64,000 bases of DNA from Parachlamydiales bacterium (GTDB lineage Bacteria; Chlamydiota; Chlamydiia; Chlamydiales; Rhabdochlamydiaceae): assembly GCA_963705295.1 (NCBI GenBank), contig OY970065.1:1088001-1152000 (forward strand). Reading direction: 5' to 3'. A program made the translations under genes and the position numbers. The notes under the pieces were generated by a model, which saw nothing but the letters and a program-made list of their open reading frames with translations, ran no database searches and was not told the DNA's origin. Positions 2,703 through 7,499 of the stretch are shown one piece after another. Positions within the stretch are counted from its first letter, which is position 1, and each line of letters starts with the position of its first letter.

Positions 2703-4523
2703 TTAAAAAACTGTCACTCGTTGGAAGGATAATGAATCATCGACCTGCTGATACCACAATTTTGAATAGAGCCCATCCATACTTAGGAGTTGGTCATGTT
2801 TTCCTTGCTCAATAATCTTTCCCTTGTCTAGAACAAGGATTTCATTGGCATGCTGGATTGTCGAAAGTCGATGAGCAATAATCAAGGTTGTGGCTTTCGA
2901 AGAAACTTCTTCGAGATTTTTTTGGATTTCTCGTTCAGTTGTTGAATCAAGAGAAGAGGTCGCTTCGTCGAAAATGAAAAGCGAGGGTTTCTTAAGTAAG
3001 ACCCTGGCAATCGCTATCCGCTGCTTCTCTCCGCCCGATACTTTGAGCCCTCGCTCTCCTACAATAGTTTGGTAACCCTCAGGCAGAGAATCAATAAAAG
3101 AATCGAGTTTAGCTAAGGCGGCAGCCTCTTCAACTTCGTTTTTTGAAGCAAAAGGGTTTCCATAAGCAATATTGTAATAGATCGAGTTGTTAAACAGAAC
3201 GGGGTCTTGAGGTACGATCCCAATTGCCTGATGAAGGGACTCTTGAGATAAAGCACGAATATCAAGTCCATTTATTGTAATAGTTCCCTTGTGAATGTCG
3301 TAAAACCGAAAAAGAAGGCGCGCAAGGGTCGATTTGCCTGATCCTGTGGGTCCTACGACACCCACTGTGTTACCTGCCTGAATCTTAAATGAAATATCTT
3401 TTAATACTATCCTCTCAAGGGTATATCCAAAATCGACTTGATCAAACACGACATCAGCCACATTTTTCGTGAGTGTCAAGGGGTGTGAAACATCTTGAAC
3501 TTCAGATTTTTGTAAAAGAACATGATAGACCGATTCGATATCTTGGAATCCCTTACGTACTTGGAATATCACATACCCTAGGTAGTTCAGCGGCATGATG
3601 AACTGTAGGAGATATCCATTGATTAAGACAAAATTCCCTACCGTCATTCTATTTTCGTAGACGGCTTTTCCCGACATCCATGTCAAACAAATCAGCCCGA
3701 TCCCAATGATCCCGATTTGGCATAGCTCAACCCATACATCGATTGTATACCGCTTAACTCCAGCCCGTTCTTGATCCTTGAAGGCGGCTTCAAGATGGTC
3801 ATGTTCATATTTTTCATTATTGAAGTATTTGACTGTTTCGTAATTCAAGAGGGAGTCGACCATACGGCCGCTTGCATAAGACTTTTTATCATTATGGATT
3901 TTTTGTGCTTTGATCGACTTGCGGATTCCAATGACACTCACAAGGCTATGCCCCATCATGATCGCCAGCAATAAAGCTCCGTACATCCCTCCGAATAAAA
4001 TCGTGATCATGGTTATCACGACGATAAGCTCAATGCAAGTAGGAAGCAGGAATGAGAATAATCCCCAGAAAACACTTTCAATCCCATTTTGGGCACGTTG
4101 GATATGGTTCATCAAGGCCCCAGTTTGCCGATCCAGATGAAAGCGCAGCGAGATTGAAAATAGGTGGTCGATAAACTTCAAACTGAGCACTTGAATCGAC
4201 CTCTCCAGAACTCGAAAAACGAGAAATGTCCGAATCTGCCCTATGGCTTGATTGAGGGTCCAACAGACTCCGTAGCCCAGAAGGAGCAACGATAACAGTG
4301 AAAAAGGAGTAGGAATAGATAAATCATCGATGATATTTTTAAAAATGAGCGGAAGACTTAAGTGCAAAACCATCATGCTAAGGGTCAGAAACAATGCAAT
4401 AACAATCCGCCACCTTATACGTCTATCAGAGGGCCAAAGAAAAAAAGGGACCATGTAACGATAAAAGGACAATTTGTTTTTAATGACATCCCCAATAGCG
4501 TAAAAATAATTCGGTGGATGCAA
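2703..4523 (-). CDS. ABC transporter, fused TMD-NBD, ATM1/HMT-like; putative lasso peptide exporter (D)
   Basis: TM segments, Walker A GPTGSGKST, signature VSGGEKQR, Walker B FIFDEATS, AHRLST, and ATM1-like DSLLNYETVKYF. Last gene of the lasso operon. The true start may be TTG 4472 or ATG 4454. Confidence 0.9.
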   Translation of the reverse strand: MHPPNYFYAIGDVIKNKLSFYRYMVPFFLWPSDRRIRWRIVIALFLTLSMMVLHLSLPLIFKNIIDDLSIPTPFSLLSLLLLGYGVCWTLNQAIGQIRTFLVFRVLERSIQVLSLKFIDHLFSISLRFHLDRQTGALMNHIQRAQNGIESVFWGLFSFLLPTCIELIVVITMITILFGGMYGALLLAIMMGHSLVSVIGIRKSIKAQKIHNDKKSYASGRMVDSLLNYETVKYFNNEKYEHDHLEAAFKDQERAGVKRYTIDVWVELCQIGIIGIGLICLTWMSGKAVYENRMTVGNFVLINGYLLQFIMPLNYLGYVIFQVRKGFQDIESVYHVLLQKSEVQDVSHPLTLTKNVADVVFDQVDFGYTLERIVLKDISFKIQAGNTVGVVGPTGSGKSTLARLLFRFYDIHKGTITINGLDIRALSQESLHQAIGIVPQDPVLFNNSIYYNIAYGNPFASKNEVEEAAALAKLDSFIDSLPEGYQTIVGERGLKVSGGEKQRIAIARVLLKKPSLFIFDEATSSLDSTTEREIQKNLEEVSSKATTLIIAHRLSTIQHANEILVLDKGKIIEQGKHDQLLSMDGLYSKLWYQQVDDSLSFQRVTVF

Positions 4524-6255
4524 TAGACATCACAGGCCATAAGTGTTCATAGTCACCACTTGCCACTGACCTTAGGGTCTGGTGCAACCCTTCTTTATCG
4601 ACAAACCCTTGCTTGACAAGTTCTCCTTCCAAACATAGATCAAGTATTTCCTTTAAATTTTTCTTAATACCTAATTGCACGACTCCTGTCGTATGGCCTT
4701 TACTTCTCCTCCACACCGTTTCGGTTTTAAAATGGTCGCTTATTGCCAGGCGGAGAGGATAACGATCATATCCTTTATCAAAGAGTTTAAAGGTAGGGAT
4801 AGAGAGAGCAAACTCCACAACCGGCTGATAAAAAAAAGGATAGCAGGTGGAATGGAATTGATGCATTTCTCCATGAATAGAGGCTAGTCCTTCATACAGA
4901 TTATCGATCTGGCAATATTTTCCTGGTAAAATTTGAGACGGTAAATGGCCGTAAACAGGATGGATAAAATCAGAAGTTTTTTCTTGGTAGGCTCGCTGTT
5001 TTATCCAAGCGGGCGGCTGAAATAGTGTATTTTTAGGATGCCTCTTCCCTAAGCGACTATGAAAAAAGTAGGATGACAAACTCTTCCCATTCTCTTTCAA
5101 AAGAGAAAAAATTGAGTCGCGATAAAAATGAGATAATTTTTTTAATATTTGTTGAGATCCTGAGATCCCTTTTTCAAGAATATAATCAGATAAAGCTTGT
5201 TTTGAAGGGGGATGCATAAAAATATGGTCGCTCCCATGCCCACTAAAATAAATAGAGGAGTCGAGAGAGGAGACATGAGCTAATATCTTTTCTTTTCCTT
5301 TTAAGCTTAGAAGTTCGGTAGTTGGTTTATTTGGTTTAATGGATAGTTTTTTGCCAAAAGAATCAAAAGGTAAAGTATCACAGAGATCAATTTCTATGAG
5401 CTCTATTCCAGTCTCTTGACATACTGCTCGGGCATATCCTGTTTCATTTGAAGATTTAATTGCAGAATGAAAAAAATTGATCGCCTTTAACGTTTGATCT
5501 TCTTTTTTGATATTTTTAAGACAATAAACTAGGGAAGAAGAATCAAGTCCCCCTGAAAGGCTAACACAAATATTTCTGTAAGGTTCAATCAAAGGTTGTA
5601 AAGTGGCCTTTAGAACGTCTACACTATCCCTTGGTGAATGAAGAGGTGACTTATAAGTTGACAGGGGGTTCCAAAACAGTTCCGTCTTGTGTCCATTTTT
5701 TGTTAATTTTAAGCAGCAACCGGGTGGAAGCTCGAAAACGTTTTTAAACGGCGTTTCGATCGCACTGCTGTTTCCATAGACAAGGTAGGAGCATAGGTAA
5801 GACCAATTTAAAGCAGGTTTTTGGGAAAGAACTTTGAAAAGAATCTCAATATCAGAAGAGAATAAAACGTCTCCACTGGAAAAAGAATAATAAAAAAAAG
5901 GAAGTTGCCCTGTCGAGTCTATCACAACTTGATTGTCTTTTATATAGACATACTTACCCCATATTTTTCCTAAGGCTTCTTCCTTATTCCTAGAGGATAA
6001 AATTTCGAAATCCTTAGGCGTCAAGGAGCGCGACGTAGCTTTATCAAAAATACGCCCCATTAAAAGGGTTGTTTCATTTTCCCACACTTCATCCTTATCG
6101 TGCTGCTCCGAACGGGGGCTATAACAAAGGGTAAGAAATTCCTTTTTGATGAGGGTAGGGGCTGAAGTATATAAAGTTAGAGCAGAGACAAGCTTATTTT
6201 CATCTATTTCACAGCAATTCTTCTCATTAAAAAGAAGAAGGCCGACGTAAATCAT
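4480..6255 (-). CDS. Lasso peptide isopeptide-bond-forming cyclase (asparagine synthetase-like, McjC/CapC type)
   Basis: PP-loop SLSGGLDSS, SGHGSDHIF and YPFFYQPVVEFALSIP...DRYPLR...WRRSKG. It lacks the N-terminal Cys of glutaminase-active AsnB. ATGA overlap with the B gene at 6252-6255. Confidence 0.92.
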   Translation of the reverse strand: MIYVGLLLFNEKNCCEIDENKLVSALTLYTSAPTLIKKEFLTLCYSPRSEQHDKDEVWENETTLLMGRIFDKATSRSLTPKDFEILSSRNKEEALGKIWGKYVYIKDNQVVIDSTGQLPFFYYSFSSGDVLFSSDIEILFKVLSQKPALNWSYLCSYLVYGNSSAIETPFKNVFELPPGCCLKLTKNGHKTELFWNPLSTYKSPLHSPRDSVDVLKATLQPLIEPYRNICVSLSGGLDSSSLVYCLKNIKKEDQTLKAINFFHSAIKSSNETGYARAVCQETGIELIEIDLCDTLPFDSFGKKLSIKPNKPTTELLSLKGKEKILAHVSSLDSSIYFSGHGSDHIFMHPPSKQALSDYILEKGISGSQQILKKLSHFYRDSIFSLLKENGKSLSSYFFHSRLGKRHPKNTLFQPPAWIKQRAYQEKTSDFIHPVYGHLPSQILPGKYCQIDNLYEGLASIHGEMHQFHSTCYPFFYQPVVEFALSIPTFKLFDKGYDRYPLRLAISDHFKTETVWRRSKGHTTGVVQLGIKKNLKEILDLCLEGELVKQGFVDKEGLHQTLRSVASGDYEHLWPVMSIASTELFLRYWGCH

Positions 6256-7330: not shown

Positions 7331-7346
7331 ATGAATTAAAGATGAA

Positions 7347-7499
7347 TTAACAAGCGTTTGGTCGTGGTCTAGTTGGATTATCTTCGATAAATTTGCCAGG
7401 GTTCCCTTGAGTTAGAGAAGTCGCCGATTTGCTCAACACAGCACCTTTTTGAACTTTAAGATTAGATTTGTTCGATCGTTTCTTGAAAATATTTTTCAT
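7347..7499 (-). CDS. Lasso peptide precursor (A), 50 aa
   Basis: Below the ORF-track cutoff. SD AGAGG, then MKNIFKKRSNKSNLKVQKGAVLSKSATSLTQ-GNPGKFIEDNPTRPRPNAC*. It has Thr at -2, Gly1 and Glu8/Asp9. The leader end resembles McjA KKSASQLTK-G. It is the first gene of the A-B-C-D order. Confidence 0.9.
   Translation of the reverse strand: MKNIFKKRSNKSNLKVQKGAVLSKSATSLTQGNPGKFIEDNPTRPRPNAC

Follow-up and report, generated by a model that had tools for sequence, protein, structure and literature searches.

A lasso-peptide gene cluster in a chlamydial genome

This work concerns a four-gene cluster in a 64,000-nt stretch of a Parachlamydiales genome (contig OY970065.1), referred to here as the window. 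Four co-oriented genes, A, B, C, and D, fill window positions 2703-7499 on the minus strand. Domain matches, a modeled structure, and precursors kept in related loci identify this region as a class-II-type lasso-peptide cluster. Gene A encodes the precursor peptide. Gene B encodes a putative leader peptidase fused to the recognition element (RRE) of a pathway for ribosomally made peptides that are modified after translation (RiPPs), C a putative cyclase, and D an ATP-binding cassette (ABC) exporter. We hold with good confidence that this is a horizontally acquired cassette of a symbiont-associated lasso family, most likely freshly broken at B.

The initial annotation of this DNA, made by a model from the sequence without database searches, proposed a lasso-peptide cluster with a 50-aa precursor, a fused B, a C coupled to B by ATGA, and an ABC exporter. 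All four genes were recovered at those positions and in that order. The lasso identity holds up as well, with B above the lasso_biosyn_B2 cut-off, a C that lacks Cys2, and a precursor conserved in related loci. Features are listed below in window coordinates. Genes A to D are all on the minus strand, and MITE denotes a miniature inverted-repeat transposable element.

7347-7499, minus strand: gene A, precursor of 50 aa (31-aa leader and 19-aa core); an open reading frame (ORF) at a position conserved in relatives.
7288-7346, minus strand: remnant of the A-B spacer with a weak 8-bp hairpin only; from folding (z -0.34) and alignment with orthologues.
7124-7287, no strand: MITE-1, 164 bp, with 35-nt terminal inverted repeats whose arms are 91% complementary.
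6252-7121, minus strand: gene B, fused RRE and Cys protease (leader peptidase), interrupted; from domain matches and an orthologue model.
7089-7091, minus strand: in-frame TAA at codon 11 of B; from the reading frame and orthologue alignment.
6674-6842, no strand: MITE-2, a 169-bp palindromic element, in frame in the interdomain linker of B; from the repeat and alignment.
6282-6644, minus strand: B2 peptidase domain (Transglut_core3 / lasso_biosyn_B2) with invariant Cys, His, and Asp; from Pfam and NCBIfam.
4480-6255, minus strand: gene C, asparagine-synthetase-like lasso cyclase of 591 aa, intact; Asn_synthase match and SGGLDS PP-loop.
2703-4523, minus strand: gene D, half-size ABC exporter of 606 aa from a TTG start, intact; ABC_membrane and ABC_tran matches.

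Genes A, C, and D are all full length. An AGAGG lies 5 nt ahead of the ATG of A, and B and C overlap by the ATGA at 6252-6255. The longest frame of D opens at TTG 4523 and overlaps C; an alternative start, ATG 4454, lies 25 nt past the C stop. D carries both Pfam domains of an ABC exporter (ABC_membrane and ABC_tran) and is 75-92% identical to D of three orthologous loci, L002, L003, and L004. A scan for promoters and terminators gave no more sites than shuffled sequence. Upstream, a GT61 glycosyltransferase gene (7639-8655) was considered as a tailoring enzyme and rejected, as it is not kept beside the cluster in L002, L003, and L004.

The chlamydial origin given in the initial annotation is supported by the pyruvate kinase in the window. 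Its named relatives are metagenome-assembled genomes (MAGs) of Rhabdochlamydiaceae, Chlamydiota, and Chlamydiales at 63-65% identity, and they also include MAGs labelled Verrucomicrobia. The closest cluster loci come from Parachlamydiales and Rhabdochlamydiaceae records. A scan of the genome for the marker Chlam_OMP6 (PF03504) gave no match, but neither did its control, so it has no bearing on the origin.

Precursor A belongs to a conserved family

Gene A had been described as missed by the program-made ORF list. Its 50-aa product is likewise absent from the protein collection we searched, and the pyruvate kinase of the same genome is present there. The leader ends in KSATSLTQ, and the junction reads ...SLTQ/GNPGKFIED, the slash marking the predicted cleavage site. 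Thr at position -2, Gly1, Glu8, and Asp9 are all present, in agreement with the claim that the residues needed in a lasso precursor (Thr at -2, a small residue at position 1, and Glu8 or Asp9) occur here. The predicted core, GNPGKFIEDNPTRPRPNAC, is 19 aa long and would carry a Gly1-Glu8 ring. Both the cleavage site and the core length, as first predicted, agree with the pattern of the wider family.

We scanned genome contigs with a profile of C, which gave 29 loci. For 24 of these we could inspect the sequence upstream of B, using an imposed motif (T-x-G-x6-[E/D] near the end of an ORF). Small ORFs with this motif lie upstream of B in 21 of the 24 loci and encode 33 peptides in total; loci L006, L010, and L024 have none there. 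On the reverse strand of these regions the motif turned up in a single peptide, in one of the 24 loci; over 100 shuffles the average was 0.52 peptides and the highest count 3. Because the small ORF occurs in 21 of 24 loci while reverse-strand and shuffle controls are near zero, it is not a product of chance. On these comparisons, the precursor is genuine and conserved, and the expectation that orthologous loci would keep a small ORF upstream of B is upheld.

Features outside the imposed motif were counted over 34 peptides, the 33 from related loci and that of the window. Gln occupies position -1 in 21 and Leu position -3 in 23, and 22 have SAS or KAS at positions -7 to -5. Position 8 is Glu in all 34 and Asp in none, and cores range from 16 to 25 aa. 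The window precursor is 71-86% identical to peptide P0242 and to the small ORFs that occupy the corresponding place in L002, L003, and L004. Within this chlamydial clade G1, G4, F6, E8, D9, and a tail ending ..PRPNA are conserved. Together the precursors appear to make up a coherent family that spans at least three phyla, its leader conserved and its core variable.

Many alphaproteobacterial loci have two to four precursor genes in tandem, whose leaders are nearly identical and whose cores differ greatly. There are four in L009 (344-1127) and three each in L019, L023, and L005.

B and C match lasso maturation enzymes

Profile searches of B and C had been suggested with the original proposal, and both agree with it. 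B matches Transglut_core3 (PF13471) at 9e-25. It also matches the NCBIfam model NF033537, lasso_biosyn_B2, at 6e-25, scoring 88 bits against a cut-off of 33, as expected of a lasso leader peptidase. Across 20 sequences, the columns of Cys171, His203, and Asp215 (L002 numbering) do not vary. In the window B fragment, Pfam gave no PqqD domain at E<=0.01.

We modeled the intact orthologous B from L002 with AlphaFold and a 20-sequence alignment. The model has a predicted local distance difference test score (pLDDT) of 84.4 and a predicted template modeling score (pTM) of 0.84. Residues 2-66 form a beta-sheet with helices and superpose on lasso B1 leader-binding proteins. Against 6jx3_B the match has a Z of 7.5 and a root-mean-square deviation (rmsd) of 2.3 A over 65 residues. 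The TbiB1 structures 5v1u and 5v1v give Z of 6.8 and 6.7. Foldseek assigns these lasso B1 matches a probability of 0.97-0.98, with E-values of 0.15-0.4 and none <=0.001. The model thus predicts a leader-binding RRE at the N-terminus of the L002 orthologue. The C-terminal domain resembles papain-like and transglutaminase-like Cys proteases (Z 5.8-6.6).

C matches Asn_synthase (PF00733) at 1e-20, and TIGR01536 also matched. Its best NCBIfam matches are the macrolactam cyclase model NF033561 (1.1e-28) and the lasso cyclase model NF033535 (2.5e-28). The true asparagine synthase model (1.2e-20) ranks behind both, and all three matches are below their cut-offs. The N-terminus of C is MIY, invariant in 14 homologues, and the SGGLDS PP-loop is also invariant. 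C lacks the Cys2 nucleophile of glutamine-hydrolyzing AsnB. These features point to an ATP-dependent, asparagine-synthetase-like cyclase.

Could the cluster be something other than a lasso pathway? C would then be a true asparagine synthetase, B an unrelated transglutaminase-like protein, and the small ORF spurious. The matches of C to Asn_synthase and TIGR01536 fit this view. Searches of the Protein Data Bank with the sequences of B and of C gave no match, so no solved lasso cyclase was matched by sequence. However, C has no N-terminal Cys nucleophile, and its best NCBIfam matches are macrolactam and lasso cyclases. B exceeds the curated lasso B2 cut-off. In addition, a motif-bearing small ORF accompanies B and C in 21 of 24 loci, and the controls are close to zero. 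A non-lasso cluster is thus highly improbable.

By analogy with characterized lasso systems, the pathway would run in four steps. The N-terminal RRE of B would bind the precursor leader (..SATSLTQ) (step 1), and the Cys-His-Asp peptidase domain of B would cleave after Gln31 (step 2). C would then activate the Glu8 side chain by adenylation with ATP and join it to the Gly1 amine around the tail (step 3). The resulting 8-residue Gly1-Glu8 ring is predicted to be threaded by the 11-residue Pro/Arg-rich tail. D would export the product (step 4). The only bulky candidates for a steric plug in the tail are Arg13 and Arg15. The predicted product, GNPGKFIEDNPTRPRPNAC minus water, has a calculated mass of 2063.996 Da.

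The cluster is a chlamydial member of a known symbiont family

A putative lasso cluster, Aasi_0899-0902, was identified in Amoebophilus asiaticus in 2010 (PMC8831229, citing Schmitz-Esser 2010). According to the passages of that account available to us, it is up-regulated late in infection and a role in host interaction was suggested. The same passages report homologues at 50-61% identity in Paracaedibacter symbiosus and Odyssella thessalonicensis (PMC8831229). Insertion sequence (IS) elements are reported to flank the Amoebophilus cluster in the available part of a second paper (PMC3423634). In the literature collection we searched, we found no report of a lasso cluster in Chlamydiota, and none of a product or target for this amoeba-symbiont cluster family.

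The window C is 57% identical to Aasi_0901. Identities to the window proteins are 49% for B, 58% for C, and 40% for D in Paracaedibacter symbiosus, and 44%, 52%, and 38% in Odyssella thessalonicensis. The architecture is shared, with one or more precursors, a fused B, C, and D, and so are hosts that are intracellular symbionts. The Paracaedibacter and Odyssella precursors have the same leader end, SASxLTQ/G, and Glu8. The likeness to this family is drawn from Aasi_0901 and the Paracaedibacter and Odyssella loci.

There are also differences. The window lies in Chlamydiota, a phylum that the available passages of the published accounts do not name (PMC8831229, PMC3423634). It has a single precursor, unlike the tandem sets of many alphaproteobacterial loci, and only the chlamydial clade has the Pro/Arg-rich tail PTRPRPNAC. 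The window D overlaps C and is about 38% identical to alphaproteobacterial D, and the window B is broken. On these comparisons, the cluster is not a new kind of system; it is a chlamydial member of a known symbiont-associated lasso family. The initial annotation had called such a pathway unexpected in an obligate intracellular chlamydia. This was overstated, as the type is known from other amoeba symbionts.

Microcin J25 offers a more distant comparison. We used the annotated E. coli plasmid locus L037 as the reference. Like the window, mcjABCD has B-C-D in that order, with a fused RRE-peptidase, a cyclase, and an ABC exporter. The leader end was said to parallel that of McjA, and it does: 9 of 19 residues are identical (KGVIQIKKSASQLTK/GGAG against KGAV-LSKSATSLTQ/GNPG). 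Thr at -2 is shared, and Gly1 and Glu8 of the McjA core imply an 8-residue ring, as predicted for the window. The proteins themselves are only 27% (McjB), 21% (McjC), and 25% (McjD) identical. In the microcin J25 cyclase model NF033535, the window C reaches 99 bits where the cut-off is 525, and the tail is unrelated. The mcjABCD layout ascribed to the cluster does not stand either: mcjA lies on the strand opposite to mcjBCD, whereas the window A is co-directional with B, C, and D, a plain co-directional ABCD layout. Judged by these comparisons, the cluster is not an mcj orthologue and the leader motif is a resemblance only. By analogy, the window system would work like microcin J25 biosynthesis.

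Another E. coli plasmid locus, L036 (NZ_CP091758.1, 13448-17559), came up first in a search of plasmids with C; it was considered as the mcj reference and rejected in favor of the annotated mcj locus. It is a different lasso cluster, distinct from microcin J25, with the order A-C-B-D and a 62-aa small ORF annotated as a hypothetical protein.

Split-B systems provide a structural comparison. The N-terminal 66 residues of the B model superpose on TbiB1 (5v1v, 5v1u) and 6jx3 with Z of 6.7-7.5 and rmsd of 2.1-3.8 over 63-68 residues, at a sequence identity of 15-18%. In those systems the RRE is a separate protein, whereas in the window it is fused to the peptidase.

The cassette appears to have been acquired horizontally

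We searched an even sample of 401 Chlamydiota genomes for C at E<=1e-60 and found matches in six. Four of these belong to this family and fall in one genus: the window genome (G000), G169, G355, and G066. Orthologues are thus present in three other genomes of the genus, with C 69-91% identical. The remaining two matches are only 30-31% identical to the window C. A Parachlamydiaceae MAG (L028) holds a more distant copy, with C aligning in three pieces. Outside the phylum, many copies in Holosporales and Paracaedibacteraceae share 47-61% identity with the window C.

The two matches at 30-31% are distant C-like genes. L035 (G054:C35) belongs to a different chlamydial family and is a distinct lasso-type cluster in A-B-C-D order, with a small ORF, a fused B of 233 aa, a C at 30%, and D. 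L034 (G077:C1), from a congener, has a C-like gene at 31% and no obvious B in the 4.6 kb examined.

In a quick maximum-likelihood tree of C, the window groups with L002 and L003 with a Shimodaira-Hasegawa-like approximate likelihood ratio (SH-aLRT) support of 100, and L004 joins at 81. The tree places this group among Holosporales, Paracaedibacteraceae, and Amoebophilus lineages, which is a basis for its family membership.

The exporter gives a different picture. D is only about 37-41% identical to alphaproteobacterial D (L005-L027), though C is 47-61% identical. Chlamydial D overlaps C, and alphaproteobacterial D follows a gap of about 85 nt. D may have a history other than that of B and C.

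The contig that contains the window is closed and 2.13 Mb long. From uvrA to the pyruvate kinase gene pyk, the interval (1419-11459) is a variable island, 10 kb long in this genome, that holds an ankyrin protein, the lasso cluster, the GT61 glycosyltransferase, and an AbiEi/AbiEii pair. In the congeners G169, G066, G355, and G077 the interval is 4-6 kb long and has different genes. It shares essentially nothing with that of the window, the sole match being 35 codons in G355. The lasso clusters of G169, G066, and G355 lie on contigs other than those with uvrA-pyk. Similarity between the window and L002, L003, and L004 is limited to about 2720-7550, and the flanking genes differ in each.

Relatedness of the genomes tells the same story. 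Identity of C to that of G000 is 91% in G169, 88% in G355, and 69% in G066. For pyk the values are 84% (G066), 80% (G169), and 68% (G355); for uvrA they are 80%, 81%, and 75%; and for the ORF at 49520-51532 they are 65%, 66%, and 52%. By these three housekeeping markers G066 and G169 are nearest to G000, and G355 is among the farthest two. Because the loci differ and C similarity conflicts with the housekeeping markers, the cassette appears to move horizontally within the genus. It was probably acquired horizontally here, into the hypervariable uvrA-pyk island.

The alternative is an old chlamydial trait, inherited vertically and lost from most lineages, rather than a mobile cassette. Consistent with this, all close orthologues in the Chlamydiota sample fall in one genus, and no transposase, integrase, or other mobility gene was found flanking the cassette in L002, L003, and L004. 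Vertical descent would, however, have to account for a different locus in each of four genomes and for the conflict with three housekeeping markers. It would also have to explain a match of any kind in only 6 of 401 Chlamydiota genomes, with this family in 4, and the same family at 47-61% identity in alphaproteobacterial and Bacteroidota symbionts. We therefore consider vertical inheritance improbable and favor horizontal acquisition.

The window copy is most likely broken at B

The initial annotation only hinted at damage to the cluster. The local B carries a nonsense codon and a MITE, so not all of the biosynthetic genes here are intact. Codon 11 is TAA (7089-7091), where L002, L003, and L004 have TAT, and Tyr is found at this position in 19 of 19 intact orthologues. 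In the L002 model codon 11 falls in the predicted RRE strand of residues 10-15. The next canonical start, GTG 7001, would lose the whole leader-binding beta-sheet.

The second lesion is the 169-bp MITE-2. The window B alone has about 54 extra aa after the invariant DWxLPL motif, which are found in none of 19 other B proteins. The insertion is in frame and falls in a low-pLDDT linker of the model. MITE-2 occurs at five places in the genome, and the other four copies are 97.5-98.2% identical. Its ends read CTAGTGCCTGACCACAAA, and the five copies are 97.5-100% identical, which suggests that the element was active very recently.

MITE-1 replaces most of the native A-B spacer and stops 2 nt ahead of the ATG of B. 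It is absent from the A-B spacers of L002, L003, and L004. These orthologue spacers (L002:4176-4293, L003:4182-4299, and L004:424-528) fold into two strong hairpins of -34 to -43 kcal/mol (z -4.2 to -6.5), whose stems are kept while the sequences differ. The hairpins may act as an intercistronic attenuator or stabilizer that has been lost in the window. MITE-1 with the spacer folds at -95.6 kcal/mol, and the native remnant has the weak 8-bp stem listed above and nothing stronger. MITE-1 is present at 28 near-full-length places, plus more fragments, in the 2.13-Mb genome.

The ends of MITE-1 read TTATTAACCCGAG... Another copy (10990-11151) lies within an AbiEii-like ORF (10350-11369) and keeps its frame open.

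Every pair, those with the window among them, gives a dN/dS ratio of 0.11-0.19 for B, C, and D. Because A, C, and D are intact and dN/dS is not relaxed, the damage to B is either recent or, for the stop codon, an error. We infer that the pathway in this genome is most likely freshly broken at B, with loss of function, and that the window copy probably yields no mature peptide. The lesions bear against activity of this copy and not against the lasso nature of the cluster. With its maturase interrupted, the window copy should not be taken for a functioning pathway.

Several points weigh against our reading of a horizontally acquired lasso cassette freshly broken at B. C and D fall far below the curated NCBIfam lasso cut-offs (for the cyclase, 99 against 525 bits). 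The Foldseek E-values for the RRE are weak, and Z of 7-8 lies in a range that the tool calls common. The C tree is poorly resolved at depth, and outgroup branches of 3.7-6.4 changes per column give no reliable root or donor. The products of the family, and their threading, are predictions. The remaining points concern B. The TAA could be an assembly error; a search for sequencing runs with reads of this genome gave one DNA run, a peat metagenome with 0.04 of the sampled words that cannot be this strain, and no RNA run. MITE-2 might be tolerated: it keeps the frame and lies in a flexible linker, where the model has its lowest pLDDT. The absence of dN/dS relaxation in the window lineage fits recent damage and equally a functional gene.

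These last points raise the question of whether the cluster is still functional, with TAA either miscalled or bypassed by read-through or by a re-start a little downstream, MITE-2 tolerated, and the 19-aa lasso peptide made. In its favor, genes A, C, and D are undamaged, and window pairs have a B dN/dS of 0.13-0.15, not above that of intact-orthologue pairs. However, the TAA arises by a T-to-A change in a codon for Tyr that 19 of 19 orthologues keep, in what is predicted to be an RRE beta-strand, and a re-start at GTG 7001 would delete the leader-binding sheet. A single gene bears three independent lesions, and the spacer has lost its native hairpins. The contig is closed at 2.13 Mb, and long ORFs of the window are uninterrupted. 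A functional cluster thus has a small but real chance, and a fresh break at B remains the far better account.

A cassette of intracellular symbionts

RiPP pathways are rare in obligate intracellular bacteria. Set against the literature we found, three results are additions: the presence of the cassette in a chlamydial genus, its apparent movement between genomes of that genus, and a precursor family that seems to span at least three phyla. The dN/dS of 0.11-0.19 is an argument for selection on the cluster in symbionts, and the loci offer about 34 candidate peptides for expression.

More speculatively, a compact four-gene cassette without mobility genes may circulate among unrelated obligate intracellular symbionts of protists, with its peptides serving as weapons or signals in a shared host cell. 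We put this forward as a tentative possibility. It would span Chlamydiota, Holosporales and Paracaedibacteraceae, and Bacteroidota (Amoebophilus), with a distant relative in the rickettsial 'Megaera'. If so, conserved leaders with hypervariable, often tandemly multiplied cores would aim at co-infecting bacteria or organelles, and the Pro/Arg-rich tail (..PTRPRPNAC) would give the chlamydial clade a target specificity of its own.

Other genes of the window

Two other groups of genes stand out in the window. Eukaryote-like proteins are encoded at 13213-16443 and 53534-60734: an ANK and TPR protein of 1076 aa, a YopJ-like acetyltransferase, a RasGEF protein, a BTB and LRR protein, and an F-box and ANK protein. 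Three tandem Legionella_OMP (MOMP-like porin) genes lie at 37378-40706, and a further copy flanks the cluster in L003.

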